The notes under the pieces: model-generated
Database searches by the model: none
The model's input: the letters and a program-made list of their open reading frames with translations, nothing else
Told to the model about the DNA's origin: nothing
Position numbers and translations under genes: made by a program
In this document: piece after piece, positions 2,975 through 55,081 of the stretch
How the letters are laid out: every line of letters starts with the position of its first letter
How positions within the stretch are numbered: the stretch's first letter is position 1
Assembly (NCBI GenBank): GCA_964450405.1
Contig: CAYVCQ010000015.1
Coordinates: 12,327 to 76,326 of the forward strand
DNA length: 64,000 bases
Source of the DNA: an uncultured Leptospirales bacterium
GTDB taxonomy: Bacteria; Spirochaetota; UBA4802; UBA5550
Direction of reading: 5' to 3'

Positions 2975-4431
2975 TGAAAAACTTTATTTTTCTGCCATTG
3001 TTTATTTTTCTCCTGGGATGTGAATCAAAACTGGATTTTGATTTTGAGAGACCGGAGGTTGTAGCGGTCTCTCCGGCGCATAACAGTACTCTTGTTCCAG
3101 CAGGATCCCGTGTTACTGTCGATTTCAGTAAACCGATGGATACCATAAAGACAAACAATGAGTTTTCATTAAACAGTGACTCTGGGAAAGTTGAAGGTGT
3201 ATTCGCCTGGGAGAACGGAGGAACAAAGCTTATTTTTACCCCGAGGGAGAATCTCTCAATGTCGGATAAATTTACTATACGCGTTAAAAAAGGTGCCGAG
3301 GATGCTGATGGGAATGATTTAAAAGAGGAGTTTGTTTCAATGTTCTTCATCAACGGTGAGAACGGCTCCCCTTATATAACCTCGTACACACCTCTTGCGG
3401 ATTCTATAGCAAATCTTCCAGGTTCACAGATAGTTATAACATTCACGGAGCCCGTGGATCTTAATTCAATATATAATTCTATCTCTATTTCGCCATCAAT
3501 ACAGGGGAGATTTACCTGGAACGCCGGGGTTGCAGATTCAACGGTAATTACATTTATACCTCTCTACGCATTTGATTACGGAACTACATATACTGTAACC
3601 GTAAGTGATTCAATACTGGATGTTAGCGGCAACAGGTTGAGGGAGCCTGTGACATTTAATTTTACAGTTGGAGATGATTTTATCAAACCGGAACTGGCTG
3701 TATCTCAGGATCTCGCGCAGGCTCCGCTGCTTAATTTTGCTGAAGCTTTAATTACTCATGGAGCGGAGAAGAATAACCGGTTAGTTCTTAGATTTACAGA
3801 AATTATAAGCACTGATAATTTAAGAAGCGCCATAAGCATTTCGCCATCTGCCGGTTTTTATGTGAGCAGCGAGGTTCTTGCAGGAGCAACCACTGCGTAT
3901 ATAAATTTTACTGATAAACTGGTATCTGAAGAGATCTATACACTCCGGGTAAATTCAAGCATAACCGATGTTCAAGGGAACCCTCTAGTAAGGGATTACA
4001 GATATGTTTTTGTAACCGATGGAGTTAACTCTATAGCGCCTGTTGTTAGCGGAATAGGGGATCTTCTCCCTTTTCTTTACTGGACTAAGGGGGACATACA
4101 GCCACTTGCTCAACAGATTGCCAATCCGCTTTCTTATCCGGATATAATTGTGGATTTTACATCGGGGAATATCGGTCCGTTAGTTGAGATTGATCCGTTA
4201 TCACTGTCAATGTATATCGAGCTTGTGGCAGGCACAGGGGCTGGCGGATCGATCATTAATATAGATTGGCCAAACGGACCGCCGGCAAAATTCACAAGAC
4301 TTAAATTCGGTTTATACGGTATTGGTGCGGGTAATATTTATAAGATAGTAATCAAGGGTGGAAAGAGCGGCTTAAAGGACATGAGGGGGAATTATATGAA
4401 ACAGGATTTTGTGCAGATGATTATGTTTTAA
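2974..4431 (+). CDS. Paralogous Ig-like (SbsA/Big_5-type) domain lipoprotein
   Basis: TAATG 1-nt overlap with the upstream gene. Lipobox FLLGC. Motifs FSKPMDTIKTNNEFSL..GVFAWENGGTKLIFTP and FTEPVDLNSIYNSISISPSIQGRFTW. Confidence 0.75.
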   Translation: MKNFIFLPLFIFLLGCESKLDFDFERPEVVAVSPAHNSTLVPAGSRVTVDFSKPMDTIKTNNEFSLNSDSGKVEGVFAWENGGTKLIFTPRENLSMSDKFTIRVKKGAEDADGNDLKEEFVSMFFINGENGSPYITSYTPLADSIANLPGSQIVITFTEPVDLNSIYNSISISPSIQGRFTWNAGVADSTVITFIPLYAFDYGTTYTVTVSDSILDVSGNRLREPVTFNFTVGDDFIKPELAVSQDLAQAPLLNFAEALITHGAEKNNRLVLRFTEIISTDNLRSAISISPSAGFYVSSEVLAGATTAYINFTDKLVSEEIYTLRVNSSITDVQGNPLVRDYRYVFVTDGVNSIAPVVSGIGDLLPFLYWTKGDIQPLAQQIANPLSYPDIIVDFTSGNIGPLVEIDPLSLSMYIELVAGTGAGGSIINIDWPNGPPAKFTRLKFGLYGIGAGNIYKIVIKGGKSGLKDMRGNYMKQDFVQMIMF

Positions 4432-4691: not shown

Positions 4692-4928
4692 ATGCATAGA
4701 GATATTTTCAGCGATATAACAGATGTTAAGTTTATAGATCTTCTGAAAATCTGTAAAAACCATTTTGGATTTCCATTAATCATTGGGAGCCACTATATAT
4801 TTGAAACTCCATGGGTGAATGATCCGGTAATAAACATTCAGGAAGACGGAATCTTTGCAAAACCATATCAGGTTATAATTGTTAAAGAAGCATTAGATAA
4901 ACTGGAGGCGCAGAATGAAAGGCATTAA
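4692..4928 (+). CDS. hicA: HicA-like toxin (putative mRNA interferase)
   Basis: 78-aa ORF overlapping the hicB start by 14 nt. Conserved GSH string (IIGSHYIF) and AKPYQV motif, typical of HicA partners of HicB. Confidence 0.55.
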   Translation: MHRDIFSDITDVKFIDLLKICKNHFGFPLIIGSHYIFETPWVNDPVINIQEDGIFAKPYQVIIVKEALDKLEAQNERH

Positions 4929-5271
4929 AAAGGATAAGTCAATTGCTCAGAACTATGACATCGAAAAATATACATACCGGATTGAATGGTCCGAAGTTGA
5001 TCATGCTCATATAGGCAGATGTTTAGAGTTCCCATCATTGGCAGCACATGGAAAGAGTGCAGATAAGGCACTAAATGAGATAGAATTTTTAGTTGGTGAG
5101 ACAATTAGAATCATGGATTTGGAAAAACAACCAGTTCCTGAATCATTCGGTCTGAAAAAGTTTAAAGGTAATCTGACGCTGAGAATATCTTCTGAAATGC
5201 ACAGGTATCTCGCTATCCGTTCCGCCGAGGAAGGTGTATCTGTGAACCAGTATATCGTCTCGAAACTGTAA
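4915..5271 (+). CDS. hicB: HicB-family antitoxin with C-terminal ribbon-helix-helix
   Basis: YRIEWSEVDHAHIGRCLEFPSLAAHGKSADKALNEI (HicB RNase-H-like fold). The C-terminal part LRISSEMHRYLAIRSAEEGVSVNQYIV is a CopG/Arc-like RHH. Confidence 0.8.
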   Translation: MKGIKKDKSIAQNYDIEKYTYRIEWSEVDHAHIGRCLEFPSLAAHGKSADKALNEIEFLVGETIRIMDLEKQPVPESFGLKKFKGNLTLRISSEMHRYLAIRSAEEGVSVNQYIVSKL

Positions 5272-5315: not shown

Positions 5316-6149
5316 ATGAAAAACTTAATCTACATAGTAATAATTCTATTACAGGGTGTTTCGCTATTCGCCTCTGCTGATAGAGCTATGTTATCTAAAA
5401 CTGAACTTAATGCCTTCGAATATAACCTGAAGACAGATACCGCGGAGGAGATAACCGCATCGTGGGAGAAAGACTCTGAAGCGAAACTTGTGGGTGAAAG
5501 GGTACTCTCTGATTTGAGAAATAACGTTGAGCATGGTTTAGCGATGAATGCCTTTTGTTCGTCTGAATCAATAGAAAAAATAATCGCTTTAAGAATACTC
5601 GCGGCTGATATAATTTCATCAGTCAACTCATCCAAAAAGATATCTAATCACAATACCAGAGGACGCATAGAATCAATAGTAGCGGCGGAGATACTTGCTA
5701 AGACAGGGAGAATTTCAATCACTCCTCTAACTCAGCGTGAGCTAAAACTGATTGACTCTGCGGAAAATATAAATCTTTCAAATGATATTTTCTCAGCCAG
5801 AGTTCTGACCTCCGGGAATATCCCAATTCCTGAATATGCATCATCTGTACCGTGTGTTACAATACCCGCGCAAACTTTTAATAAACTTAAATCGCATCCT
5901 GAAAAGAAGAATACGTTAGTATATAACTCAACCTATATAGAGTGCAGAAAAAATCTCTATGACAATGAATTTGCCGATCTTTACAAGCTGTTTCTATACG
6001 TCCGTGATAACAGCGCAAACGGTAAAACGTTTTTTTTAAAATATAATAAGTTTCCCTTCATCACCATTCAACCACTATTCAATTTAACTCGATATAAAAA
6101 CACCTCAACAACAAACAACGAAATTATACAACCAGGAGCACCCTCATGA
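5316..6149 (+). CDS. Hypothetical secreted protein, translationally coupled to the giant gene
   Basis: N-terminal signal peptide (IVIILLQGVSLFASAD). Its stop TGA (6147-6149) overlaps the ATG (6146-6148) of the giant gene. No recognisable domain. Confidence 0.65.
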   Translation: MKNLIYIVIILLQGVSLFASADRAMLSKTELNAFEYNLKTDTAEEITASWEKDSEAKLVGERVLSDLRNNVEHGLAMNAFCSSESIEKIIALRILAADIISSVNSSKKISNHNTRGRIESIVAAEILAKTGRISITPLTQRELKLIDSAENINLSNDIFSARVLTSGNIPIPEYASSVPCVTIPAQTFNKLKSHPEKKNTLVYNSTYIECRKNLYDNEFADLYKLFLYVRDNSANGKTFFLKYNKFPFITIQPLFNLTRYKNTSTTNNEIIQPGAPS

Positions 6150-9100
6150 AAAAAAGGATAACCTTATTATCTGCTATATTCCTATGCTTTTTTACCGCGC
6201 CATTTTTGATTTTTGGAACTTCTCTTTCGGCTGAATTTAAATTTAAAGAGTTTAAAAGCGACCGTGAGAAATTTGAGAGATATACAAGCGAAGCTGAGAA
6301 GAGTGTAAATGAACAGCAGTGGCAGAATATACTAGATTCCGGAAAGCAGGAGATGCTTGCAGACTGGGAGAGGAGTGCGGATTCCGAAAGGGAGAGGTAT
6401 ATCCGGGAGGGAGCTGCTGATAATGAAGTTCGTGTGAGTTTGGAGGAGTCCCGTGCAGCATGGGAGAATGACTACGAAAAGGCCGAGTCCGGAGCAAAGG
6501 GTTCATGGTATATAAAAAGGGAGAAACTTGTATTTGAGGATATAGATTTTTCGCTGTTAAGAGAGATCGTTGAAAACGCAGGGAAAGACAGTAATGTAAC
6601 TAATGTAACTAATGTGGCTCAGTGGGACAGTTTTGTAAGCAGTTCACTTGCCGGAGTAAATTCTGCATGGGATTTAAAGTTTCTTCCGCCGCTGAGCAAT
6701 CTGAGGAGCAAAGGTGATATTTTAACCGGTGAAGAAAAGGCAGGCTTTGAAGCGGAGCTTGCCGCATTTGAAAATGATCTAAGGAAAAAATTCGAGGTAG
6801 AACGCAATACTATTCTCTATAGCGGACGTAATATTTTTATTACAGAGCTTATGGTGGATACTACTTCTCTCCGATACCAGAGTGATAAAGAGAGTGCCGA
6901 TGCCGCTACAGACAATCTGATAAAGGATGTAAAGAGTGATTTAAAAACCGAAGAAGATAAAATACTAAATAGAAGCTATAACAGCGAGGGGCAGAGTCCG
7001 GTAGATTTTTCCAGCATGGGGGATAACTGGGAGGAGGAGCTGAAACAGCTTGTCAACACCGGTATGGAGAAGTGGAACGCCACCCTTGATAGATTATATC
7101 AGCAGATGCTTAACTGGAAACAGAGCGCCGAGGATGCCTATAACAGCGCCGAGGCGATATGGTTAAAATCGGCCGAGAAACTTGGACTTGCGCGGCTTGA
7201 GTGGGAGGCTAAACTAAGTAAAGAGATAAATGAATCACTTGATAAATGGAAGAGTGAAGAGTCTGAACTTACGGTTAACATAGAGCGCTCGAGAGAGGAT
7301 TTCAGCAGTTACATGAACAACCTCTCCAGTCAGTGGGATGACCACAGCAGCGGACTGATTGATATGGCTGTAAACGGTTCGAAGGTATATGCCGAGTCTC
7401 TTGATAATATAAAATGGCTTCAGGAGATGGCTCTTAAGTGCACCAATCAGGGGGCCTTTAACAGTGAAAGCGATATAACGCCATATTTATCTCCGGAGAT
7501 TTTAGCAGATATTTCAAGTGTGATGGAACAGTATCCATGGATTGGTAATAATTATAAATATAGAGCAAAATTTAACGGCAGTACATTAAACAGTGACGGC
7601 ACAATACTTACGGAGAATTACACTGTTGATATGTTATTCTCATTTCCAAAATCTGATTATTTTCCAGCTGGATTTGAGTTTACTATGAAAAGCTATTCCT
7701 GGGATAATGTGGTCACTGACGGATCAGATGCAGTGAGGAAATCGACCTATTTCTACTATAAGACCGAGCTTGAGAGATGGAAAAAAATAGAGACTTCTTT
7801 TTCAGGAATTGCACATGACGCAGAATTATACATGCATGAAAAGAATATGCTTGGACAGGGGGGGCCGGGCTATTTGAATAACGCAGGTGGTAGTGATCCA
7901 TATCTGATGACGGATGCCGAGTTTGCACTGGAGGTTTCATCAAGAGATAGAGATTTCTGGCAGAGGAGACTTGATATAGCGAGGGCAGTTCTTGATTACG
8001 CCGGAGCGACTAAGCGTGAGGGTGCTGCAGCAACCGAGGCAAATAAAGTAAATGCCAAAACCGCAATGGATAGCGCAAAGGCACTGTACGAAACAACACT
8101 TAATGAAGTACAGGACATTGTCGTAAGGCTGAATGCGCTGCAGGGTAAAAAACCCGCCGAGGCAAGAAATGCATTAAACGCCGCAGAGTGGGACGCCTAT
8201 CTGACCAGCATAGAATATCTTACACAAAATTTCACTGAAGCGAATCAGGCGTTAAAAATTGCAGATGAGGATTATACTCTGCGCAAGAGAGCGCTAATAT
8301 ATTTAGAAAATGGCGAGGATAGCAGTATTATCAAAAAAGAGATTGAGGGGCTTGAGCGGAACATCCTTCAATCTGATAGGGCACTATATGTGAAACAGGT
8401 TGAGCTGTATAAAACAGAAATGAATAACGAATTTTCCAGAAGGAGTGCCGGATTTGCTCAGAATTATGAAACTGCCGTAAAGAATTTTGAAGAATCTAAA
8501 CTAAGATTTAATAATCTCAAAAATATTCTCACCGGCGATGAGAGTGATGCAGCCCTTGTATCCTGGGGTGAAAACATTGTATCGGCTAAAGAAAATATAT
8601 GGGAAAAAGAAGCAGCCGTTTATTACGGGAATATTATTCAGAATCTGATTTCCGGTTTTAACGGAGCCGCCGGTAATGATAAGATTTTAAAAGGGGAACA
8701 ACTATCGGCATTTATAAGAAATATCTATTTTGATCTACAGGGTAATGTGAAGAGCAGTGAGATGATAGTATCGACTCTGCACGATAATAATTTTGATCCT
8801 GATTTATTTCTTAAAAGCAGCTACAGCGATGATCAGGCAGCATATGAAAATTATGCTGAAACATCTGTAAAGGCACTTGAGATTGTGGATAGCGCCTTTG
8901 AGTTATTTAAAAATGACAGCAGTAAACAGAATTATAACTCAATATTAGACTGGCTTAAAACTGAACTTGCAAAAGAAAAGTATACATACAACGCTCCTAA
9001 TTCTTCGTATATGGAACACTACACAGCCCTTAAATATTTTGAAGAAAACTTCCACGGACTTACACCTGAAGCATGGGAGAGCAGCCGCGACAGGCTCGAC

Positions 9101-12100
9101 AGTGATATAAACTTTTCAGAAAAAGCGGCTGATCTGCACCGGGATTTTAAAAAGCTCAATGCCGTTGACCTTGCTGAACTTATATCTGAAAATGAAGCCA
9201 TTGCATCGGGCAGATATGATGCTGATGCAATAGCCCTGCTTCGTGAATACTATATGACAGGGAGCGGAATAGCGGGACTTAAATTTATTGAGGAGTTTGA
9301 TAGAAGTGCCGAACTTGGACGTAAATCATACGAGAATTTAAAAAACTATGTATCTCTCAATTATAACTACCTTCAGAAGGGGCAGAACCTGCTTACTGAA
9401 TATACATATCTTAATGATATGCTTGGATATATAAACAGCAAAGTATCGACTCTGCTTCTTGACATATCCGAATCAAACCCATTATCAGTTGAAGCATTTA
9501 AAAATCTTACACCGGAAAGCCTCAGCGAGGCGGCAGGTGCGCTTGCATCATATATGGATGATCTTGAGCAGCGGAATATGCCGGTGCCCGATTTTTTGAG
9601 AAGTGCCGCTGAAACAGTAGCGCAATTAAAAGTTAATCTCGATTCGGGTCTTTTTATTCTGCGGTATATGAATAATGACACATCTGCTGAAATGGCGGGC
9701 ACAGTTGATGATATTTATGCCAGAAAGCTTGCCGAAGCGGGTGAGAGTTCAGTCGTAATGGAATTCATTCAGGGCTGTGAGGAAATAATTGAAACGGGGA
9801 AGGATGATTACGCCTCGGGAATGAATATTCTCTCGCTTTACGAAAAACTGACTGAAACTCAGAAGAGCTATATTGCGCAGCATAAAGATGCGAATGTTAA
9901 AGAGGTTAGTTCGTTTATTGAAAATTTATATCTTTATAGATATACGATTAATCTGAACAGCTTAGCCGCACAATACAGCGGGACCGAATTATCGGTTACA
10001 CCGGAACAGTATGTTTCGACCATGCAGCTTCGGGACGAGGATAAAACGAAACTGATTGCGGCAATAAAACCTGTTTATGAAAGAAGAAATTATGATAAAG
10101 ATTTTGCCGATGGAAAGATATTAAATATTGAAGATTATATAACATCAAGAGATCTTGATGGAGATACAGAAAAATCGCTTCGAGCTTATGCAATGATAAC
10201 TGAGTATAATAAAATTGCATCAACTGGAAATTATACAAGCACAGACCCGGCATTTACTACCTACATGCAGTCAAAGGATTTAAAAGATCTCCCCGATGAT
10301 GCGAAGATATTTGCCGCGTCTAAGTATTATTATGACGAGATGTTTTCAAAAAACAAGGTTCCGGCAGATGTAGAACAGTTTCTTGAAGATAAGTTTGGTT
10401 CAGCTGGAGTTAGCGGATCGCTTGTAGACGCGGTTAAGAAGTATGCCGGGATGCTCAGTACCGTTTCATTCTTCTACGGGAACGATCTGGAGAAGTACAC
10501 AAAGGATATGGATGCCGATGCGATGAAGTATTTTCTTATGTATATAAACGGTGACGGTGACGCGATACTCCCCGGCTTTGAATACGGAATATATGGAAGC
10601 AACATAGCAACAGCTCAAGTACTGGTTGAACAGGGTAAAATCACCGCTGAACTTGACAAGTATGCATCAGGCTTTAGTGAACTTGTGAGAAGACAGGGAA
10701 AAAACCTTGATGCAGCAAATGCCGGACTTAAAAATGCCTCGGCACTGCAGGCTTTTTATAAGAATGGAAACTCCGAAAAAAACTGGAGAGACAGCCTTCT
10801 CCCGGTAATTGAAAAAACAGAAAAAACTGATACTGCCCCTGCGAGTGAGAAAAATATAATTACACTTCAGATCCTTGATGATCTGTCCGGATGGTTTGAC
10901 ACATTGGACAGTGTGACGGGAGAGCGAAGCACACTCATTTACAGTAAAACTCCAGCGCCTCGGGATGGAAAAACATTTTCGATAAACGGTATAATTGATA
11001 ATATGAATAAAATCGTAAGTGTGTTTACAGCACTTGGTGAATCAATGAAGCCTGAATTTAAACCGGACAGCCAGGGGAGTATAGCAGGTTTTCTTGAAAA
11101 GGTCGATGCCGACTCCGTCTATAAACTGGGAGAAAATTATGCATTTGAAAACGGTGCATTCACATATGAAACCGGACTTATTGGTATAGTGTCGGGATAT
11201 AAGACGTCAAGCGACGGCTATACGGCAACAGTTGCCGCGATCAAAGGTGAGCTGAACGGGATAGATTCAGGAATGGAGAATAATCAAAGCACACTCCAGT
11301 CAAAAAAGATGAGTTATGATCTTATGACCGGCGGGAAAGATAAAGAAACCCTATTGAAAGAACTTGAAGTATCAAGAAGAACACATGACCTGGCAACACA
11401 GGATGTGGAGAGGTTACGCACATCACTTATTGCGGCACGGGGAATTTACGAGGCCGCCAATACCAGCTACATAAACAAGATGAATGAAGTCAGCACCGCA
11501 TACAGCAGCTACAAGGGACTTGAATTTAATTACGAGAGGGCATATTCTGTATGGGAGTACGCCAACACTCCATATCTTAAAGAGGATAAAACCGACGCCG
11601 GTGATATTGTATCGGGTGAGACTCCGGCTGGTGAAGCTGCGGATTACGGAACTATACCTGTACCTGATGCGAGGGATAACTATGCAAGGATCCTTGCGAA
11701 ATTTAATGAGGTGAACACGCAATATATTGCCAAAGCGGCGGCAGTAACTAATCAGGATACGGTTGAAAAACTGAACTCCGACCCTGAATATATTAAAATG
11801 AAAGCGGATTTTGAAAGGAAGAGCCAGTCGTACATAAGAACTTCGCAGGTGAATGTAGAGGTGAGCGAGGATCTTGAGGAGTATAAACAGCAGTATAATA
11901 TCTCAAAACAGATATATGAAACATCAAAAGATTCTGTAAGCTTTTACTCCGGCAAATATACTGCAGCAACGGATGCAGAGAAGGCAACACTGAAAAAACT
12001 GAGAGACACGATTCTGAACCATATGCTGAAAACCGGCAGCGAAGGGGAGAGTAAAGCGGTAATGGAAACCTATCTTTCTGCAATAACATGGTACAGCAGT

Positions 12101-15100
12101 GTTACCTCAACAGCCGGTTTAGAGGGGGCGATTCAAGATGCGCAGAAGCAACTTGCCGGTGGAAACCTGAATCTGGGAGAAATCTATGGGATAAATAATA
12201 ACATTTCCACATGGAGAGATATAATCGCAAGCAACGCGCCATATGTGACTGCCTATAATAACCTATCGGAGCAGATCAGAGATGATGTAAAAAATATTTA
12301 TGACAGTTTTAAAACAAATAATGATTCATTAAGCAATATATTGAGCAGCTTTTACGCCGCAATATACTGGAGAGGTGAATATGAGTACGCAAATCATAGA
12401 TATAACAGTACTCCAAAGATAAAGGTATCAACAAGAAGAATATGGCGGGACAGACGGGACAGCAGGTGGGGGAAATATGCCAATCTGCAGTATCAGTATG
12501 ACGGAGCAATAGCTCCGATAAGAACAAGCCTCGATAATGCAAGGAAGGATAAAATTGATTATGCTGCAAAGGAAGCGGCATATACAGGAATATCCTCTGT
12601 AAGATATATAGATGAAATAAAATCATACCTGAAGCAGGGAAAATACGGACTGACCGATGAAGATCTGAAACATTTGTATGACAGCACCAGCACAGGATAC
12701 CCGATAGATGGAGAAAGTATAAATCTTGATGATCTTAGAAATCAGAATGAAAAGCAAAGAAAGGATCTTGACGGAGAAACGGTATACGCAGATGTAAATG
12801 ATACAACAATAACCGTACTTGATAAAGATGGAAAAGCTCAATTCGATAAAGACGGGAAAGCCATAGAAGTATATAATATTAATGATGCCAGTATAAGGGT
12901 TGAGAAGATAGATGGAAAGTATGTGGTATATGACCGTACTTATAATATAGCGGCAGTGGCGGGTATACTCAAAACACGCGCAGAGAGTATAAGACAGAGC
13001 TACTATACAGCACTGTTAAACTACAGCTCAAAGCCGGTCGAGGAAGGTGGGCATGACAGCACAGTGGTTTTGCGTGACCTTGAAACAACATACCATGGGT
13101 TGCAGGAATTTGCCGAAACATTTAATCTAAATAATGCAGCCGTAACAACACCGGCAGATAAAGAGATACGCCAGAGAGGATTAGAGGGCTACGGAACAAT
13201 AACAAGGGAGTATGTAAATAACGGAAACGAAACATCACTGCAGGGATTGATAATGAATGCTCTTATATCTCAGAGCACTCGTTTACAGGAACAGCTTTGG
13301 GCACAACAGTCGGATAAATTTCAGGAGAGAAAAAACCGCTGGAGTGAAGTAACGGGATATATAGTAAACCGCGGGATGAAGGAGTGGAGAGAAAATTACG
13401 GCGAATTCAAAAATCTCTGGACAAAATGGAGATTTGATGCTAAAAAGATGATAACTGAAGGGGAGGAGTTCTGGACAAGTGTAAACAACGGAATGAAAAC
13501 CGAAATGAACAGCTGGACAGCAGAAACATCCAAAGCCTCGTCAAAAGAAGCAGCCGAAAGGATCTACGGAGACCTTGAGGGCCGGATAAGCAGGTATGAA
13601 GCGGATCTGAAGAATAAAATTCCCGGCAATGTAAAAACGGATTTAAACATAGATAAAATTCTAAGCCAGTCTATGAAAAGCAACCCCATAGACAGCCTGG
13701 GAATACTGACACAAAGCATGCAGAACACAGACACAACGGCAGGCTTTACAAATATGCTTAACCTTGGCTTAAACGGAAGCCTGTTTAAGTACAACGAAAA
13801 ACAGATGGAAGAATACACAAACGCCATGGGGTTAATGAAAAACCTCCAGGTGATAGACATACTGAACAATATAATAGACAGTTTTAACAAACAGCTTGAA
13901 GAATCGAACAAAAGTGTATACGACGGGATAGACTTTAATATAAGAGGAAACCCGAGCTTTGGAGATGCACCATACCAGAGAAAAAAAGCAGAAAACAGAT
14001 GGGATATAAGAGTATGCGTAGCAAGTAACCTGACAGGGGACAAATTTAAAACCAGACAGTTTGCAGATTACAACAGCTACATAAACAGCACAGTATACTT
14101 CCAGCCGATAAAAGGACTGGGAGGAACAACAATAGATTTTACAGAGGTAAATACATACAACAAACTGGATGGAGAAGAATTAGATACATACGTAGGCCTG
14201 GAATCGGAATGGCTAAGCAGAAAGATAGAAGATGTATTTAAAGAGGGCGGAACATTCTCGGGCCACCAGGAGAAGGAATACAACAGGCTATACGCACAAT
14301 TTGGAGAAACCTACGGTGAATGGATGGCAGGAGAAGCCCTGCAGAACGCCGGTTTCTATGCCAAACCAATAGGACCCGGAGCACCGAGCATCATGACAGG
14401 AACAGTAATGATAGCCCAGGTAGTAGGTACATGTACCGGAATGGTCTGGATAGGAGCAGCAGCCAATGCGCTGGCACTTACAGTACAGATAGCAGACGGA
14501 ACAGCCGAGGCAAAACATGTAGGAACACAGGTAGCCGTGGGAGCAGCAAGCGCCATGACAAAGGGGGCATCGGATATATTCACATCAGGAATAACCTATG
14601 ACCAGGACGGCGGAGTAGGCTGGGATAAGAAGCAGTTCAAAAAAGGCGCAAAAAAGAATGTGGTAAAACTGGGATTAAAAATGGGCGGAATGGATACCTT
14701 TTCAACCGAGGCAATAGTAGATGGCCTGAAGACAGATGGAGGCTGGAATGAGTTTGGATTTGACACAAAGAACTGGCGACAGCATCTGCTTGTTGGGGCA
14801 TCGGCAGCATTGAGTGAAGGAGCAGGACAAGCCTCGGGAAGCAATTTACTTGGGCAATTTCTGAGTCAGAGTATGCAGTGTATGGCGTATGATACCATGG
14901 GCGGAAAGGGATTTTCGGAAGAGTATGGAAAACAATACGGCAAGTTTAACTGGGATAACTTTGGAGCAAGCACATCAAGATTAGGTGGGGATCTCGGCGG
15001 AATGGCCATGAAGAAGTTAGATTTAATGGCAACAGAACGTGAAGAAAATAGAAGTAAAGGATTTCCTGAAGGAAAAGGATTGCTTGATTACGCCGACGAT

Positions 15101-16285
15101 ATGTTAGGTGGAATATGGCAGAGTCTGAAGGGCGCAAAAAAATCTATGGGTGAAATCACAGATGGAATAATAAAAGCAGTAGGGCTTACCGATGTGGTAA
15201 ATACTGTAGCAAGCGGTTATAATAAAGCTGTAGAATTTATGAATGGAGATGGGAATATATTTGGAAATATTGGAAAGATTATCGGAGGTGGAGTCGCTGA
15301 TGGAGCAAGATCTGGTTGGAATGGAGTAACGAATTTTGCACAGAGCGTAAAGAACAAAGTTTCTTATAGTGAATTTGGAACAAATTCAAACCCTCTTGTT
15401 GAAAAAGCTAAATTAAATTATCAGTTTGAAAGTGCTGGATTAACAAATCAAAACCTTGAAGCGAACTATCAGCCAGGCGCAGTAATAGAAGCTGATGATG
15501 GAACAATTTTTCAGATTAATCTTGATGAAGATGGTAACAGGATATTGTTTAATACAGGTGAAAATAGTAAATATTACGTACAGATGGCGGGATTATTTTC
15601 TGAAGGGAAACCAATAGATAAATTTGTAGATCAAACACTGGATATAAGTTCAAGGTACCAGGCAATTCATAATTATGATGATGGTAAAACGGAAATAAAT
15701 GGCATTAAAATTTCATTCAGTAACAATGATTACAATACAAAAGATAAAATAAGCAAAGTTTCTGGGAGATTGTGGAATAATTTAACAGATGCGGCCGATG
15801 ATACCGATGTGAATGTTACAGGAATAAAAGTATATTCAGTTGATTATGGAACAAGTGATCCACATGCTGCAGGTGTAGGGATTGACATTATAGGTTTGTA
15901 TGTTAATGGAAGTAAGGATATGACTGATTATCGACGAGACTATAAGGATGGTCAATTTAATCCTACGACACAGAATTCTGTAATAACAAATTTTGAAAAT
16001 GCATTCTTTTCTAAAGATGGAAGTACGCATGTGTGGGGGCCATGGCAAATGAAGGATAATGTAAATAATTGGGATTTTAAAAATATGGTGAGTGATTACC
16101 CTGGTGTGGTTAATACTGGTATAGCAGGAACAAAGGCATCAGAGTTATTAAAAGATTATGCTGATAAATATAAAGTTGATCAGACAAAACTATTCAGGAG
16201 TTATCAGCATACAAATCACGGTCACTATCAGGTGGATTTTAAGTATAGTACTGTTGACAAATACAAAGTTTATAAATTAATATAG
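6146..16285 (+). CDS. Giant 3379-aa secreted protein: helical body, Gly/Ala-rich hydrophobic module, C-terminal LAS-type (M15/VanY-like) metallopeptidase-like domain; candidate polymorphic toxin
   Basis: Single uninterrupted ORF with AGGAG 8 nt upstream of the ATG and a Sec-type signal peptide (LLSAIFLCFFTAPFLIFGTSLSA). Hydrophobic stretch IMTGTVMIAQVVGTCTGMVWIGAAANALALTV at about nt 14390-14490. SDPHAAGVGID at nt 15854-15886 and NHGHYQ at nt 16214-16231. Confidence 0.9.
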   Translation: MKKRITLLSAIFLCFFTAPFLIFGTSLSAEFKFKEFKSDREKFERYTSEAEKSVNEQQWQNILDSGKQEMLADWERSADSERERYIREGAADNEVRVSLEESRAAWENDYEKAESGAKGSWYIKREKLVFEDIDFSLLREIVENAGKDSNVTNVTNVAQWDSFVSSSLAGVNSAWDLKFLPPLSNLRSKGDILTGEEKAGFEAELAAFENDLRKKFEVERNTILYSGRNIFITELMVDTTSLRYQSDKESADAATDNLIKDVKSDLKTEEDKILNRSYNSEGQSPVDFSSMGDNWEEELKQLVNTGMEKWNATLDRLYQQMLNWKQSAEDAYNSAEAIWLKSAEKLGLARLEWEAKLSKEINESLDKWKSEESELTVNIERSREDFSSYMNNLSSQWDDHSSGLIDMAVNGSKVYAESLDNIKWLQEMALKCTNQGAFNSESDITPYLSPEILADISSVMEQYPWIGNNYKYRAKFNGSTLNSDGTILTENYTVDMLFSFPKSDYFPAGFEFTMKSYSWDNVVTDGSDAVRKSTYFYYKTELERWKKIETSFSGIAHDAELYMHEKNMLGQGGPGYLNNAGGSDPYLMTDAEFALEVSSRDRDFWQRRLDIARAVLDYAGATKREGAAATEANKVNAKTAMDSAKALYETTLNEVQDIVVRLNALQGKKPAEARNALNAAEWDAYLTSIEYLTQNFTEANQALKIADEDYTLRKRALIYLENGEDSSIIKKEIEGLERNILQSDRALYVKQVELYKTEMNNEFSRRSAGFAQNYETAVKNFEESKLRFNNLKNILTGDESDAALVSWGENIVSAKENIWEKEAAVYYGNIIQNLISGFNGAAGNDKILKGEQLSAFIRNIYFDLQGNVKSSEMIVSTLHDNNFDPDLFLKSSYSDDQAAYENYAETSVKALEIVDSAFELFKNDSSKQNYNSILDWLKTELAKEKYTYNAPNSSYMEHYTALKYFEENFHGLTPEAWESSRDRLDSDINFSEKAADLHRDFKKLNAVDLAELISENEAIASGRYDADAIALLREYYMTGSGIAGLKFIEEFDRSAELGRKSYENLKNYVSLNYNYLQKGQNLLTEYTYLNDMLGYINSKVSTLLLDISESNPLSVEAFKNLTPESLSEAAGALASYMDDLEQRNMPVPDFLRSAAETVAQLKVNLDSGLFILRYMNNDTSAEMAGTVDDIYARKLAEAGESSVVMEFIQGCEEIIETGKDDYASGMNILSLYEKLTETQKSYIAQHKDANVKEVSSFIENLYLYRYTINLNSLAAQYSGTELSVTPEQYVSTMQLRDEDKTKLIAAIKPVYERRNYDKDFADGKILNIEDYITSRDLDGDTEKSLRAYAMITEYNKIASTGNYTSTDPAFTTYMQSKDLKDLPDDAKIFAASKYYYDEMFSKNKVPADVEQFLEDKFGSAGVSGSLVDAVKKYAGMLSTVSFFYGNDLEKYTKDMDADAMKYFLMYINGDGDAILPGFEYGIYGSNIATAQVLVEQGKITAELDKYASGFSELVRRQGKNLDAANAGLKNASALQAFYKNGNSEKNWRDSLLPVIEKTEKTDTAPASEKNIITLQILDDLSGWFDTLDSVTGERSTLIYSKTPAPRDGKTFSINGIIDNMNKIVSVFTALGESMKPEFKPDSQGSIAGFLEKVDADSVYKLGENYAFENGAFTYETGLIGIVSGYKTSSDGYTATVAAIKGELNGIDSGMENNQSTLQSKKMSYDLMTGGKDKETLLKELEVSRRTHDLATQDVERLRTSLIAARGIYEAANTSYINKMNEVSTAYSSYKGLEFNYERAYSVWEYANTPYLKEDKTDAGDIVSGETPAGEAADYGTIPVPDARDNYARILAKFNEVNTQYIAKAAAVTNQDTVEKLNSDPEYIKMKADFERKSQSYIRTSQVNVEVSEDLEEYKQQYNISKQIYETSKDSVSFYSGKYTAATDAEKATLKKLRDTILNHMLKTGSEGESKAVMETYLSAITWYSSVTSTAGLEGAIQDAQKQLAGGNLNLGEIYGINNNISTWRDIIASNAPYVTAYNNLSEQIRDDVKNIYDSFKTNNDSLSNILSSFYAAIYWRGEYEYANHRYNSTPKIKVSTRRIWRDRRDSRWGKYANLQYQYDGAIAPIRTSLDNARKDKIDYAAKEAAYTGISSVRYIDEIKSYLKQGKYGLTDEDLKHLYDSTSTGYPIDGESINLDDLRNQNEKQRKDLDGETVYADVNDTTITVLDKDGKAQFDKDGKAIEVYNINDASIRVEKIDGKYVVYDRTYNIAAVAGILKTRAESIRQSYYTALLNYSSKPVEEGGHDSTVVLRDLETTYHGLQEFAETFNLNNAAVTTPADKEIRQRGLEGYGTITREYVNNGNETSLQGLIMNALISQSTRLQEQLWAQQSDKFQERKNRWSEVTGYIVNRGMKEWRENYGEFKNLWTKWRFDAKKMITEGEEFWTSVNNGMKTEMNSWTAETSKASSKEAAERIYGDLEGRISRYEADLKNKIPGNVKTDLNIDKILSQSMKSNPIDSLGILTQSMQNTDTTAGFTNMLNLGLNGSLFKYNEKQMEEYTNAMGLMKNLQVIDILNNIIDSFNKQLEESNKSVYDGIDFNIRGNPSFGDAPYQRKKAENRWDIRVCVASNLTGDKFKTRQFADYNSYINSTVYFQPIKGLGGTTIDFTEVNTYNKLDGEELDTYVGLESEWLSRKIEDVFKEGGTFSGHQEKEYNRLYAQFGETYGEWMAGEALQNAGFYAKPIGPGAPSIMTGTVMIAQVVGTCTGMVWIGAAANALALTVQIADGTAEAKHVGTQVAVGAASAMTKGASDIFTSGITYDQDGGVGWDKKQFKKGAKKNVVKLGLKMGGMDTFSTEAIVDGLKTDGGWNEFGFDTKNWRQHLLVGASAALSEGAGQASGSNLLGQFLSQSMQCMAYDTMGGKGFSEEYGKQYGKFNWDNFGASTSRLGGDLGGMAMKKLDLMATEREENRSKGFPEGKGLLDYADDMLGGIWQSLKGAKKSMGEITDGIIKAVGLTDVVNTVASGYNKAVEFMNGDGNIFGNIGKIIGGGVADGARSGWNGVTNFAQSVKNKVSYSEFGTNSNPLVEKAKLNYQFESAGLTNQNLEANYQPGAVIEADDGTIFQINLDEDGNRILFNTGENSKYYVQMAGLFSEGKPIDKFVDQTLDISSRYQAIHNYDDGKTEINGIKISFSNNDYNTKDKISKVSGRLWNNLTDAADDTDVNVTGIKVYSVDYGTSDPHAAGVGIDIIGLYVNGSKDMTDYRRDYKDGQFNPTTQNSVITNFENAFFSKDGSTHVWGPWQMKDNVNNWDFKNMVSDYPGVVNTGIAGTKASELLKDYADKYKVDQTKLFRSYQHTNHGHYQVDFKYSTVDKYKVYKLI

Positions 16286-16305
16286 TTTTATAAGGAATTT
16301 ATTAT

Positions 16306-16863
16306 ATGAAATCTAAACAAATAAGATTAATAATATTTACCATTACGTTAATTGTAGTTTTTTTAATAAATGGAATTGCTGAAAATATAATTCCGAAAAA
16401 ACCAAGTAATGTTTTAAAAGAAGCTAAATGGGAAAGTATTTTATCTTTATGGTCATTTGGCGATAGATTAGAAGGTAATAAAACTTTATGGTACAAAGAT
16501 GGGACATATTTATATAGAGAGATTTTAGTTAAATCAAATTTTAAAAAATCGATTCGATATCATGAGAATGGAAAAATACAGAGAGTAGGACAATTGCAAT
16601 ATTTCAAAGATAAGTATTGTGATAATGACGGCAATCTTATCGGTTGGATAGAAATAGGTAAATGGAAAGAATATGATAAAGAAGGAAGTTTAATTCATGA
16701 ATGGTGTCTTACACCGAATCCAAACAGAGGTGGAGAAGAACCTCAAAAATGTGGCGAAGAAAATTTTTACAACAAAGATGGTTCATTAAAAGAAAAAAAT
16801 AATCATAAATTAGAATGTAAATACGGTTGTGAAGAACTTGAGTATAAAGATTCAACCAAATAA
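16306..16863 (+). CDS. Signal-anchored MORN-variant/YwqK-like protein; candidate immunity protein for the giant protein C-terminal domain
   Basis: Starts 20 nt after the giant-gene stop, with AAGGA as RBS. N-terminal hydrophobic anchor. Repeats RYHENGKIQRVGQ and GKWKEYDKEGSLIHEW resemble YwqK-family antitoxin/immunity repeats. Confidence 0.65.
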   Translation: MKSKQIRLIIFTITLIVVFLINGIAENIIPKKPSNVLKEAKWESILSLWSFGDRLEGNKTLWYKDGTYLYREILVKSNFKKSIRYHENGKIQRVGQLQYFKDKYCDNDGNLIGWIEIGKWKEYDKEGSLIHEWCLTPNPNRGGEEPQKCGEENFYNKDGSLKEKNNHKLECKYGCEELEYKDSTK

Positions 16864-16910
16864 TGTTTATTGTACTGCAAGTTCTTTAGAATAGTATTCA
16901 ACAAACAAAC

Positions 16911-17290
16911 CAAGCCTCACTCCGGCCTCTCCTCAAAGAGAGGGGGTTCGTAATACAATTTCACGGAAAGTATCGCCGCAGCCGTGCGATTCTGCACTCT
17001 GCGGCGTTACGACAGGTTTTGATATAACTATGAGCTAAGCCCCTCCGGCTTCGGAGGAGACGCGGGGTTCGCGAAGGGGTGCGCGGCTGCACCCCTTGCA
17101 CGTTGAATGTACAAATACACACAATTAACAGTATCAAAAAAGATAAACACCCTCACCGCGTGAAGGATTGCAGTGGAAATCCCGCCCCGAAATTTGGCGG
17201 GATCAAATAATTTTATAACAGAATAAATTTAATGAGGAATAAAAATATAAAACAACCCGGGGCGGGATTGGAACGCAAAGCCTGACCCGG
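16911..17290. repeat. Cluster of GC-rich hairpin/inverted-repeat fragments (degenerate selfish-element remnants)
   Basis: Hairpins cgccgcag..ctgcggcg, ggggtgcgcggctgcacccc and atcccgcc..ggcgggat. Inverted pair gaaatcccgccccg / cggggcgggattgg about 70 nt apart. No ORF. Confidence 0.4.
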
Positions 17291-17372
17291 ATGCAGTAAA
17301 ACTGAAAATATGTAGATAATTAAGAAATTCGCATCACTAAAAAAATGCAGCAGGGGCACGCCCGACCGTTGT

Positions 17373-17411
17373 TACATAAACAGCACAGTACACTTCCAGC
17401 CGATAAAAGGA
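17373..17411 (+). repeat. 39-nt direct duplicate of giant-gene nt 14078-14116
   Basis: tacataaacagcacagtacacttccagccgataaaagga versus tacataaacagcacagtatacttccagccgataaaagga: 38/39 identical, same orientation. Confidence 0.85.
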
Positions 17412-17442
17412 GGGTGTGATTTACACAAAAAATCAGACACCC
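17412..17442 (-). terminator. Possible rho-independent terminator of the 17492-18853 gene
   Basis: On the minus strand: gggtgt-ct-gattt / aaatc-acaccc stem (11 bp with a 2-nt bulge) followed by tcctttt. Confidence 0.35.
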
Positions 17443-17491
17443 TTTGTATGATAGGCTTTATAAATTACAATATCCGGCACCCCGGATTGGA

Positions 17492-18853
17492 TCACACTTT
17501 ACGGATTCCCTTTTTCTTTAAGGGTTCCGAAATACTGACAGAACCTTCGCCGGCTAGATCAGTAAGACTGAGTTCACCTTCGGTACCGCTAAGTTCAGAC
17601 ACCGAAAGCCATCCCTTTTCAACAGAACCAAACCTTGACTGTATCTTCAGAACTGACTCGTTAACTCTGCTTCTGAAAAATGGATTAATACTCTTTCCGC
17701 CACGGTGCAGGAGTTTTTCAACAGACTGTATATTTCCGCATGTTGCAAGAGCCTCAACTGCGCCGTCTACAATATCGTCATCTGTATGATCCAGAAGAGG
17801 TTCAAGAAATGATCTTAAGTTTTCATTTTCGAATTTCTTAAATGTTTTAAGAATCTCCAGCTTTAATTTTTTTTTGTTATAATTAGTAAAAACATCGACA
17901 AGGGCCGTTGAAGATTTTTTAAACAGAGCATCACCAAAAGCCGTAACAGCAAGTAGAACAAGCTTGTCATCAGCAATTTTTTCTTTACTGATAATTTTCA
18001 GAATATGATTCAATCCCGCGGCACCGAGATTTAATCCAGCTTCAAACTGAATCGGAAGATAAACATCATCAAGGCAGGTTTTTAACAGTGTATCAATTTC
18101 CTTGTCACGGGGATAATTTTCCATAAGAACTTTCAGGCAATTCAATCGGACTTTGCTGATAGGATCGTGAGTGACATTTTTAATATGAAGTTTTCTTAAA
18201 TCGGAATATGACATTATCATTTTGGTTAATGTAAAAATAGTATTAATATTTTTAAGAACCATTTCAGTCGAATTGTTATCCAGTTCTTTATAATAGATAT
18301 GAATTTTATCATTGGAGATGCGAACATAATCGGAACTCTGCGCCAGTAATAAAACTTCTTTCCTCAAATTATAAGTAAGTATGGCAACAACTGTATTCAG
18401 ACTGTTTTTATAACTTGTTTCCATTTTAAGATCAAACTCAACATCACCTGATTCAACAGACTCATACCACCAGTCAGACTCAGATACCGGCTGCTTTGAA
18501 TCTACTTTTGTAATGTGGAATTTTTCTTCAAAAGGAGTATTAAATCTGACACCGAATTCGAACACCTGGAGGTATTTATCATCGATATGTATTTTATTTA
18601 TCTGCGCAAAGAAATCATAATCATCCATTTTGCCATATAAAACCGGGAATGAGAACATACCTACATTGGCAAGTTTGAAACCCAATTTTTTGGCTATTGC
18701 AGAGAAAATAAAATTACCGGTTTTTGATATGCTTCTATTACTTTGAAAATTTTGAGCGGGTGTAGATAAATATAAAATATAAATACCTATCAAAACAGCA
18801 GAAATAGCTTTCAGTACGTAAAAAAAAGTTTCCATCGAGGAATTACCATCCAT
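17492..18853 (-). CDS. Membrane-anchored hypothetical protein with C-terminal HEAT-like repeats
   Basis: N-terminal TM (FFYVLKAISAVLIGIYILYL). The C-terminal half has HEAT/PBS-lyase-like helices (DDDIVDGAVEALATCGNIQSVEKLL). Confidence 0.6.
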   Translation of the reverse strand: MDGNSSMETFFYVLKAISAVLIGIYILYLSTPAQNFQSNRSISKTGNFIFSAIAKKLGFKLANVGMFSFPVLYGKMDDYDFFAQINKIHIDDKYLQVFEFGVRFNTPFEEKFHITKVDSKQPVSESDWWYESVESGDVEFDLKMETSYKNSLNTVVAILTYNLRKEVLLLAQSSDYVRISNDKIHIYYKELDNNSTEMVLKNINTIFTLTKMIMSYSDLRKLHIKNVTHDPISKVRLNCLKVLMENYPRDKEIDTLLKTCLDDVYLPIQFEAGLNLGAAGLNHILKIISKEKIADDKLVLLAVTAFGDALFKKSSTALVDVFTNYNKKKLKLEILKTFKKFENENLRSFLEPLLDHTDDDIVDGAVEALATCGNIQSVEKLLHRGGKSINPFFRSRVNESVLKIQSRFGSVEKGWLSVSELSGTEGELSLTDLAGEGSVSISEPLKKKGIRKV

Positions 18854-18894
18854 TCAAAGCTGGTGAAGCATTTTCACTTTTAAATATATATCTT

Positions 18895-20163
18895 TTAATC
18901 GAGTGTCAAATTGTTATTGATAAAGTCTATATATGTTTTAACAGACTTTTTGTAAATACTCTCGGGAGATTGAAGTAGAATAAAGTATATTATTTTTCCG
19001 CTGAATCTGGTATAGAAATTCTCATACTTAAGGATGAAGTTGCCTTTCAATTCACCGAGCATGGGATACTCGATAATCACACCTGGATTAACCGGTTCCT
19101 CCCGTTCTATAAACATCATCGTGGTTCTTATGCCCCCCTCATCCTTTGAAGTTTCAGAATCAGAAACTTCATATATTTCATCAGAATTGAATTTGTTTTT
19201 TATACTGATTTTTTTAGCATTCGGGAATGCGGAGGTAATTCTTTTTATAAACAGGCTCTTGTCTTCACCTTTATCCGGTATATATGAGATTATACTGATT
19301 CTTGAATTTACATCAGATTTATTTTTTCCTTTAATTTTTTCGGTTTCAATCATAGCTATGTTCTTTTTTTCATTGAATCCTGTGAATTTAGAGGTCCAGT
19401 TTTTGCTGCTTTTAATTCTTATCCCAAGCGGAACAGACAGGTATATCTCTTCATCAGAAGCTTTTTTCCAGAATTGTTTATTTTCATATTTTTCCCCCGG
19501 ATCCGAGATTAAAGCCAGTTTTTTTATTTTAGTATAAGAATCATAAAAAGGTTCTTCTTCAATTTTTTTGTATTCAGCTTTATTCTTTGACATATTTTCA
19601 AATGCCATAAGATAGTTTAAATGCATCATGCATATCAGTGAACTGTCGGCATAATCTCCCCAGAATGCCCAGTGCAGTGAGGAAGGTTCAGCTTCATTAA
19701 TAATTTCTCTATAACTTTCAATACCAGGCTTGTCGTGTCCGGAAAGGCATTGATGCTGTCCGATGAACCAGTTTGCCCTGTAATCTCTTTTGTCTATTTT
19801 TTTTGCTGTCTCGTAAAAATTAAGGGCAGGATTGTAATATTTGATAGCATCCAGATTATAGAGATAATGAGCAATGTCCCCTTTTAAAAGATAGTAATCA
19901 ATATTCTTTTTATTCTTAGATTCGAGATTGTTAAGTTTTTTAAGCAGATCTTCAAGTCTATCTATTACGCTTTCTCTTGTAACCGGGAAAGTCCATGTTA
20001 TCTGGAAATGCCGATACATCCCCTGGTTCTCCCAGAGATAATCTATTTCTTTTTCAAGCGATTTCCAATCGTTGATAGCTCCAATGTTGATCGCCTGCAG
20101 GTTCGCCATTAAATTACCGGCAGTAAAAAATAAAAAAAACAGAATAATAACAAATCTTTTCAT
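18895..20163 (-). CDS. Hypothetical secreted protein
   Basis: Signal peptide MKRFVIILFFLFFTAGNLMA. Lies 41 nt upstream of the next gene on the same strand. No recognisable domain. Confidence 0.6.
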   Translation of the reverse strand: MKRFVIILFFLFFTAGNLMANLQAINIGAINDWKSLEKEIDYLWENQGMYRHFQITWTFPVTRESVIDRLEDLLKKLNNLESKNKKNIDYYLLKGDIAHYLYNLDAIKYYNPALNFYETAKKIDKRDYRANWFIGQHQCLSGHDKPGIESYREIINEAEPSSLHWAFWGDYADSSLICMMHLNYLMAFENMSKNKAEYKKIEEEPFYDSYTKIKKLALISDPGEKYENKQFWKKASDEEIYLSVPLGIRIKSSKNWTSKFTGFNEKKNIAMIETEKIKGKNKSDVNSRISIISYIPDKGEDKSLFIKRITSAFPNAKKISIKNKFNSDEIYEVSDSETSKDEGGIRTTMMFIEREEPVNPGVIIEYPMLGELKGNFILKYENFYTRFSGKIIYFILLQSPESIYKKSVKTYIDFINNNLTLD

Positions 20164-55064: not shown

Positions 55065-55081
55065 GTTTAATGAGAGGTTTA

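Follow-up and report, generated by a model that had tools for sequence, protein, structure and literature searches.

What is a signal-bearing protein of 3379 amino acids (aa) with a C-terminus that looks like a cell-wall hydrolase made for, and how would it reach its target? We examined this question for a locus of an uncultured Leptospirales bacterium (Spirochaetota), contained in a stretch of 64,000 nucleotides (nt) of contig CAYVCQ010000015.1 that we call the window. The locus consists of three co-directional open reading frames (ORFs):

5316..6149, + strand: partner gene, 277 aa, with an N-terminal signal peptide, no lipobox Cys, and ATGA coupling to the giant gene
6146..16285, + strand: giant predicted carrier-toxin gene, 3379 aa, with orthologues of 3440 and 3512 aa
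16306..16863, + strand: predicted cognate immunity gene, 185 aa, with an export signal, MORN-variant-like repeats and conserved Cys/His

An original prediction, drawn from the letters of the window, had described these genes as a candidate Sec-dependent polymorphic-toxin-like system. Its coordinates for the three ORFs, for the 20-nt spacer between the giant and the 185-aa gene, and for the ATGA in which the partner's stop overlaps the giant's start were all exact, and the good ribosome-binding site it had noted is an AGGAG 8 nt before the giant's ATG. The Sec-type signal peptide that it had assigned to the giant, the signal anchor of the 185-aa protein and the secretion of the partner fit the N-termini as well: each is basic and then hydrophobic, as is typical of Sec signals, with top 12-residue Kyte-Doolittle means of 2.6 for the giant, 2.7 for the partner and 3.2 for the 185-aa protein.

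From comparison of the sequences we conclude that this is in all likelihood a polymorphic toxin-immunity locus. Unrelated C-termini are found on one carrier, with a sharp breakpoint and a downstream gene that co-varies with the tip. The same tip and immunity family also occur on unrelated carriers, and orphan modules are present at a related locus (L012/L004).

An exchangeable tip and its downstream gene

A genome scan with the N-terminal 900 aa of the giant returned five loci: three in metagenome-assembled genomes (MAGs) titled Spirochaetota, Spirochaetae or Leptospirales, one in a complete metagenome chromosome, and one on a 'Patescibacteria' contig. The last of these (L001, JBGSRK010000045.1) is a 6-kb contig with a 58%-identical giant fragment, assigned to a 'Patescibacteria group' MAG, and is most likely a mis-binned spirochaete contig. 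Full-length orthologues were found at L003 (3440 aa) and L004 (3512 aa). When metagenomes were scanned with the pre-toxin domain (aa ~2609-2745), seven further contigs came up, five of which extend to the 3' end; an earlier metagenome scan with short patterns had given no true relatives. Homologous giants are now known from about 12 Spirochaetota genome or metagenome loci, and the carrier-plus-partner family, which is new, has so far been seen mainly in Spirochaetota-titled assemblies and metagenome contigs.

The three full-length giants share 33-75% windowed identity to about aa 2800, after which identity falls to 10-20%. Within the last 450 aa of the window protein, the match to L004 ends at about aa 3107, and L003 gives no match. 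The original prediction had suggested searching for homologues of the body that carry other C-termini and other downstream small genes, and such homologues exist. Over its last ~300 residues the same carrier bears at least four unrelated tip classes:

Tip class 1: the window's class, also in P0004
Tip class 2: L003, L004 (= L012) and, as a more distant member, L018; a Cys conserved in '..FASKACV..' and a distal His
Tip class 3: L013 (= L016); its end, '..FLHSGFQSEGCFVTGG', recalls YkuD-type L,D-peptidases by eye
Tip class 4: L014; '..TWCNYAANEF..GGGHVAAL', by eye reminiscent of CHAP/NlpC amidases

The carriers of L013 and L014 are 98.7% identical over 1677 nt, up to a break about 300 codons before the stop. 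There is no similarity over the tip and the downstream gene(s), and 96% identity is regained beyond, which amounts to the replacement of a cassette between near-identical strains. In P0004, the carrier region is 46% identical to that of L018, and BLASTP (E <= 1e-5) does not match it to the carrier region of the window; despite this different carrier region, its tip is 53% identical to the window tip. As an aside, about 40 residues in the N-terminal extension of the class 3 tip (L013, ~1770-1890) resemble a TAL-effector repeat (PDB 3ugm), with a summed E of 8e-5 and each repeat individually insignificant. This stretch is probably a helical hairpin.

The cassette of the window begins at a short junction:

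15368..15592, + strand: cassette start, with the junction motif S-E-F-G-T-N-S-N-P (aa 3075-3083) and an extension to aa 3149

The same N-terminal extension precedes the toxin in P0004 and P0005, whose upstream regions differ. The junction motif reads ..EFGT[ND].. in the window, P0004, P0005 and P0011, and ..ERTG..EF[AG][TS]D in L004 and L014. GC content drops from ~0.45-0.48 to 0.33 over nt 15000-15400, and the cassette of the window is compositionally foreign:

Body: 41.7% GC (45% directly 5' of the junction), 40% at third codon positions (GC3)
Tip: 32.6% GC, GC3 23%
185-aa gene: 27.2% GC, GC3 17%
Intergenic stretch 3' of the 185-aa gene: 45-57% GC

What follows the tip changes with it. We inspected gene context for three of the five members of the window's tip family for which such context was on record, P0015 (L007), P0019 (L008) and P0025 (L009), and a homologue of the 185-aa protein lies 3' of the tip in all three (pairwise E 1e-9 to 1e-11). 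Class 2 tips (L003, L004/L012, L018) are followed by related secreted leucine-rich-repeat (LRR) proteins, class 3 by a 177-aa and class 4 by a 211-aa protein; the latter two are candidate lipoproteins, unrelated to each other, in which a Cys comes after a hydrophobic stretch at the N-terminus. Judged from these sequences, the 185-aa family accompanies the window's predicted toxin family wherever downstream DNA was inspected, and the comparison indicates that tip and downstream small gene travel as one unit.

One related locus holds more than a single cassette. At L012 5583-11676 (= L004 from ~21280), there comes after the LRR gene the remnant of a window-type tip, truncated at its 5' end ('..VWGPW..YPD..HWEHRHHGHFSVKK'). 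Behind it the 185-aa family is present four times, twice in fusion with an FGE-sulfatase domain, which makes a poly-immunity array. Orphan modules in this arrangement are typical of polymorphic toxin loci (PMC3482391), and the FGE-sulfatase domain type is a documented immunity scaffold of type VI secretion systems (T6SS) (bioRxiv 10.1101/2021.05.21.445229). Unlike L012/L004, the window has no orphan toxin or immunity module downstream.

The predicted peptidase and the immunity candidates

The tip of the window contains the following predicted features:

15593..16285, + strand: aa 3150-3379, C-terminal toxin domain, predicted to be a zinc peptidase of LAS/MepA-like type
15863..15886, + strand: H3240-x2-G3243-x3-D3247, first half of the predicted metal site, invariant, with the spacing of MepA H113-x2-G116-x3-D120
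16208..16225, + strand: H3355-x2-H3358-x-H3360, second half of the predicted metal/catalytic site, with the pattern of MepA H206-x2-H209-x-H211

An exhaustive HMMER search with the tip gave 21 proteins including the window's own (alignment A3), while a word-index search with the tip alone had found nothing. The domain is C-terminal in every one of the 21. In 8 of them the Rhs-associated core TIGR03696 lies directly N-terminal of the tip (E 1e-14 to 1e-23), the N-terminus of P0005 looks by eye like a repeat region of the filamentous haemagglutinin (FHA) type, and P0019 is a stand-alone tip.

Six residues are invariant in the 21-sequence alignment: H3240, G3243, D3247, H3355, H3358 and H3360. 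The original prediction had pointed to S3237/H3240/D3247 (nt 15854-15886) and N-H-G-H-Y-Q (nt 16214-16231), both of which are exactly placed, and had read H3240, D3247 and H3360 as the zinc triad of an LAS-fold peptidase. All three are among the invariant residues, which follow the MepA pattern; the E. coli mepA gene encodes ..S-H113-Q-T-G116-L-D-V-D120-I.. and ..H206-R-A-H209-M-H211-V.. The signature of LAS metallopeptidases, MepA included, is H-x(3-6)-D together with H-x-H (PMC3927764, citing Bochtler et al. 2004), and MepA cuts D-Ala-meso-DAP bonds (PMC3927764, citing Bochtler et al. 2004 and Marcyjaniak et al. 2004).

We modelled the tip with AlphaFold on the family alignment and obtained a pLDDT of 90.3 and a pTM of 0.87. 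The top four PDB matches of this model are MepA chains, all weak (E 0.12-0.83, probability <=0.84, TM 0.32-0.41), and the viral structure library gave nothing significant. The structure comparison that the original prediction had called for thus returned an LAS peptidase, MepA, first, at a best E of 0.12 and a TM of 0.41 and with no curated LAS profile above threshold. The recurrent Pfam matches in the family are likewise sub-threshold: Extensin-like_C in 4 members (best E 0.003), covering the H-x6-D stretch in the 3 members re-examined, and VanY in 1 member (0.083). We take both to belong to an LAS-related clan. PDB matches of the tip profile were discarded as His-tag artefacts, and PDB sequence and profile searches with the tip and with tip classes 3 and 4 gave nothing real.

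Very probably the tip represents a new family of LAS-type metallopeptidases, for which the motifs are strong evidence and the fold is suggestive only. That it is a peptidoglycan-cleaving LAS peptidase is the assignment we favor on balance, with rather less assurance.

Next to P0019, at L008 648-2825, there is a 313-aa protein ending '..SGHDDHLHVMIGE', with '..HHASTNAGRVMDI' upstream, which looks like another LAS-like signature. Two small candidate lipoproteins, with a Cys after an N-terminal hydrophobic stretch, come after it. Together they may be a second toxin-immunity cassette.

The original prediction had taken the 185-aa protein for an immunity protein of the MORN/YwqK type. Its role drew support from the relatives that follow the same tip family; its type fared less well, since the MORN_2 match scores 21 bits against a Pfam cut-off of 29.6. 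Recurrent MORN_2 matches of 24-27 bits in four homologues are also sub-threshold. The family has conserved Cys and His residues (C134, C149, H167, C171 and C175), which could form disulfides or reach into the predicted metal site of the toxin. PDB searches with the 185-aa protein and with the partner gave nothing real.

Candidate immunity proteins from four downstream-gene families were inspected, and all nine of them have N-terminal hydrophobic export signals. Since all nine would be exported, the toxins probably act in the periplasm. We propose that the carrier is dedicated to periplasm-acting toxins and would have no need to pass an inner membrane.

The carrier, its partner and their surroundings

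N-terminal of the cassette, the giant can be divided as follows:

6146..6232, + strand: predicted Sec signal peptide, aa 1-29, MKKRITLLSAIFLCFFTAPFLIFGTSLSA and then EF after the cleavage site, which was read by eye
6233..13969, + strand: long body, aa 30 to ~2608, no repeats by self-BLAST, 33-75% identity between orthologues
6260..7450, + strand: most conserved N-terminal domain, aa 39-435, 65-75% identity between orthologues
13970..14380, + strand: conserved pre-toxin domain, aa ~2609-2745, NRWxIxVC..NLTGDK[FY]KTR..TYVGLE, 55-75% identical in alignment A5
14381..14560, + strand: Gly/Ala-rich, moderately hydrophobic hairpin-like module, aa ~2746-2805, a candidate membrane-insertion element
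14561..15367, + strand: Gly-rich region up to the cassette junction, aa ~2806-3074, 12-17% Gly, 19-30% identity between orthologues

The giant is not a chance ORF, because the uninterrupted frame is kept in two other genomes and an identical 3379-aa protein is recorded in independent assemblies. The hydrophobic maximum lies at aa 3-31 in all three full-length giants. We considered a lipoprotein signal at the giant's invariant Cys14 and dropped it: the Cys is too near the N-terminus and has Leu at -1, which makes cleavage by signal peptidase I after SLSA likelier.

The body had been described as Cys-poor and taken to be helical. With 6 Cys among 3379 residues the first part holds, and the second is weakly supported: an AlphaFold model of aa 1-900, the part for which secondary structure was predicted, has ~80% helix, mainly long helices with one beta insert at aa 470-523, but it was built on a shallow alignment and is of low confidence (pLDDT 54.7). 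The sole library match of the body is that of aa 39-435 to PHROG phrog_22272 (E 2.6e-27), a profile of 4080 positions and unknown function, and no phage, plasmid or IMG/VR sequence was found behind it by tblastn or IMG/VR scans. Searches for relatives of the giant by tblastn against 50,697 phage records and against plasmids, and by IMG/VR scans, found none, and an origin from a phage or mobile element is therefore unsupported. PDB sequence and profile searches with the whole giant, its N-terminus and the pre-toxin region gave nothing real. None of the three proteins of the locus belongs to a Pfam or NCBIfam family, the 185-aa protein having its sub-threshold MORN_2 match only.

The Gly/Ala-rich hydrophobic module of the original prediction was found at the place given above. 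Its hydrophobicity is marginal, with 19-residue Kyte-Doolittle maxima of 1.4-1.6 in the window and L003, and its small-residue pattern is kept across 8 carriers. Such marginal hydrophobicity is compatible with passage through Sec and later insertion into a membrane.

Partner homologues, with 29-46% identity, lie directly 5' of the giant in all loci that include its 5' end (L002-L006). Gene order is shared by the window, L002, L003 and L004 and runs from tandem AcrB-type genes through two Big_5 genes and a HicB-like gene to the partner, the giant and the small gene. At L006 the upstream context differs and the partner and the giant are the only shared genes, which makes the partner the one universally linked gene. 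We considered whether the tandem RND pumps and the Big_5 proteins encoded upstream take part in export, and dropped the idea; they are syntenic in four genomes and absent from L006. On the 53-kb contig of L006 the giant is split into at least 4 consecutive ORFs (10001-18965; 1335, 1018, 78 and 509+ aa), reflecting either a pseudogene or assembly errors.

The neighbors of the locus are RND pumps, Big_5 proteins, HicB and a HEAT-repeat protein, and the remaining genes of the window are ordinary chromosomal ones (RND pump, Big_5, HicB-like, ABC transporters, asparaginase, class A penicillin-binding protein, RlmN). As had been predicted, genes for type V, VI or VII secretion, Rhs or CdiB are absent from the scanned ORFs of the window.

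Three further observations concern the flanks. Just 5' of the partner gene (4692-5271), a 78-aa ORF overlaps a 118-aa HicB-like ORF (Pfam HicB, E 1e-10), and ORFs of 113-118 aa occupy the same place in L002-L004; the two ORFs are possibly a toxin-antitoxin pair in kept synteny with the locus. Directly 3' of the AT-rich immunity gene, in a GC-rich stretch (16900-17200), there is an intergenic, sub-threshold Rfam match to Flavo-1 RNA (RF01705; 17150-17291, + strand; 52-57% GC) that covers the full-length model and scores 36.2 bits (E 6.5e-6), below the gathering score of 42. Finally, the product of 55022-56269, 415 aa long, contains a complete FGE-sulfatase domain (E 6e-34), the type also found fused to copies of the 185-aa family in L012. 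It has no similarity to the 185-aa protein, and any tie between the two would be conjectural.

Known systems, rival explanations and a possible mechanism

Signal-peptide-dependent export is a recognised trafficking category of polymorphic toxins (Zhang et al. 2012, PMC3482391). In pathogenic Neisseria, MafA/MafB/MafI is a Sec-dependent polymorphic toxin system in which an accessory gene lies upstream of the toxin gene and an immunity gene downstream (Jamet et al. 2015, PMC4287609), and the characterised MafB tip is an EndoU ribonuclease (PMC4287609). Our locus resembles it in the order of accessory gene, signal-peptide toxin and immunity gene, in a conserved N-terminal region with variable C-terminal toxins, in signal-peptide-dependent secretion (here predicted) with no dedicated secretion system among linked genes, and in orphan cassettes (here L012/L004). 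MafB is a protein of several hundred residues with a DUF1020 N-terminal domain, MafA is a lipoprotein, and we take the immunity protein of the EndoU MafB to be cytoplasmic. In contrast, the giant is far larger and has no DUF1020 match, the immunity candidates here carry export signals, and the tip looks like a wall peptidase.

Other systems share other parts. Rhs/YD-repeat toxins have the same C-terminal toxin family and, at L007 at least, the same immunity family, but the giant has no RHS/YD repeats, Rhs core or DPxG cleavage motif. CdiA/CdiB is similar in its Sec-exported carrier of more than 3000 aa, short junction motif, exchangeable C-terminal toxin, immunity gene and cassette swap; unlike CdiA, the giant has no TPS domain, FHA repeat or VENN motif, no CdiB/Omp85 gene lies nearby, and the body is predicted to be helical (aa 1-900, at low confidence) rather than beta-helical. 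The tip matches MepA (peptidase family M74) in the order and spacing of H-x2-G-x3-D-I and H-x2-H-x-H and, by prediction, in a periplasmic site of action, but there is no significant sequence or profile similarity, TM is ~0.4, and MepA is a housekeeping enzyme with no immunity partner. The 185-aa family recalls YwqK/MORN_2 and FGE-domain (Tsi3-like) immunity proteins through its sub-threshold MORN_2 repeats and the fusion to the same FGE-sulfatase domain in L012; YwqK is cytoplasmic, whereas the 185-aa protein has an export signal and conserved Cys/His. The TANFOR toxins of Bacteroidetes are also large and lineage-restricted, with a new N-terminal domain, variable C-termini and downstream immunity genes (Jana et al. 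2020, PMC7073777). Their export route was deduced from context only; their neighborhoods are enriched in proteins secreted by the type IX secretion system (T9SS) (PMC7073777). They differ from the giant in phylum and in an unrelated N-terminal domain (no Pfam match), and no secretion-system gene was found in this window.

Searched for trafficking domains of Pfam and NCBIfam (RHS/YD, TPS/FHA, PAAR/VgrG, LXG/WXG, DUF1020), the giant had none, and the scanned ORFs of the window include no cognate apparatus for Rhs, contact-dependent inhibition (CDI), T6SS, the LXG branch of type VII secretion, or MafB. Lacking DUF1020, TPS/FHA and RHS domains, the giant does not belong to Maf, Cdi or Rhs. The nearest system is MafA/MafB/MafI by gene order and Sec dependence, CdiA by length and junction, and Rhs by tip. 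The claim that the locus fits no known polymorphic-toxin class was thus overstated, given the Maf precedent, although the carrier and partner family do match nothing that we searched.

Several observations weigh against reading the locus as a polymorphic toxin system with a peptidoglycan-cleaving tip. The match between the folds of tip and MepA falls short of conventional significance, an hhalign comparison of the tip family profile with MepA was negative, and no curated LAS, M15, M23 or M74 profile matched above threshold. The MORN_2 match of the 185-aa protein is under the Pfam gathering score. The peptidoglycan-fold guesses for tip classes 2-4 are by-eye motif likenesses without Pfam or PDB support, the model of the body (aa 1-900) is not a confident one, and the partner is without a relative in Pfam, NCBIfam, PHROG or PDB. 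Nor are genes for an outer-membrane transporter, for lysis or for a known secretion system linked to the locus. The giants themselves amount to just three full-length and about ten partial proteins, all from uncultured organisms.

Of the rival explanations, the one that survives best concerns delivery. The giant might be a diffusible, colicin-like bacteriocin that is freed by lysis or in outer-membrane vesicles, its body binding a receptor and its peptidoglycan-cutting tip being imported into the periplasm of the target. Colicin M and pesticin have peptidoglycan-targeting tips that are imported to the periplasm, and periplasmic immunity proteins, and the layout here is colicin-like, with a long body, a C-terminal killing domain, an adjoining downstream immunity gene and exported immunity. 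Colicins are not known to have signal peptides and are linked to lysis genes; here the reverse is seen, a signal peptide and no lysis gene, and poor diffusion is expected of a protein of 375 kDa. No apparatus dedicated to secretion or contact is linked to the locus, and MafB, the nearest analogue in architecture, is present in culture supernatant in a way that depends on its signal peptide (PMC4287609), both of which suit a diffusible agent. We consider this explanation possible but doubtful.

It is unlikely that the tip is instead some other metal-dependent envelope enzyme, directed at lipids, lipoproteins or another periplasmic target. The weak fold and profile evidence leaves room for such an enzyme, and His-rich motifs occur in many metalloenzymes, but the order and spacing of the six invariant residues are those of MepA, which also heads the list of structural matches, and the only recurrent sub-threshold Pfam matches are to two families that we take to belong to an LAS-related clan.

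We give still less credence to a housekeeping envelope protein, that is, a periplasmic scaffold with its own autolysin for wall remodelling and a downstream protein acting as regulator. The locus is chromosomal and its synteny with transporter and Big_5 genes is kept in four genomes, the tip resembles a housekeeping endopeptidase, and everything would be periplasmic. However, unrelated domains replace the tip between 98.7%-identical strains, which is not expected of a housekeeping enzyme, and tips common to Rhs toxins, orphan tip remnants with arrays of inhibitor genes, and a foreign base composition speak against it too. A phage-derived protein, tape-measure-like or injected, with a helical ruler, a hydrophobic segment and a C-terminal muralytic domain, is the least credible of all: the layout recalls tape-measure proteins such as T5 Pb2, which has a long body, a hydrophobic segment and a C-terminal wall hydrolase, and the N-terminal domain has its PHROG 22272 match, but neither flank has tail, capsid or terminase genes, the giant has a conserved Sec signal peptide and no match in phage records or IMG/VR, and an immunity gene and tip polymorphism are foreign to tape-measure proteins.

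A polymorphic toxin-immunity locus could work as follows. Sec would export the partner, the carrier and the immunity protein. The toxin, a zinc LAS peptidase most like MepA, would cut the peptide links in the peptidoglycan of a competitor's periplasm. The exported MORN-like protein would bind and block the toxin in the periplasm of the producer and its kin. We hold these three steps with fair confidence. More speculatively, the partner may aid folding or exit of the carrier, and the long body may present the toxin outside the producer, with the carrier either displayed or released. The Gly/Ala-rich amphipathic module might then insert in the outer membrane of the target and pass the C-terminal cassette through, and the cassette might perhaps be cleaved off near the conserved junction ..EFGT[ND].. 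Taken as a whole, mechanism steps included, this polymorphic toxin reading is likely to be the best explanation of the locus, while our confidence in any specific delivery route is low. One such route, which we advance as a conjecture that could easily be wrong, is that carrier and partner form a self-contained new delivery device of diderm spirochaetes, reaching from periplasm to neighbor's periplasm without a known secretion system, with the module as outer-membrane translocator, the junction as release point, and envelope-targeting toxins as its only cargo.

Our literature search, in an incomplete library, found no paper describing this system and no experimentally characterised interbacterial weapon of a spirochaete. 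The locus is a concrete candidate for one. What is new is a carrier family without counterpart in the Pfam, NCBIfam, PDB or literature searched, bearing an exchangeable tip, together with an LAS-like predicted toxin domain and an immunity family that are both shared with Rhs systems. The tip classes form a small catalogue of candidate cell-wall-targeting enzymes. The system may also show how a very large Sec-exported protein, or its tip, crosses two outer membranes without a known machine, a question that MafB of Neisseria poses as well.

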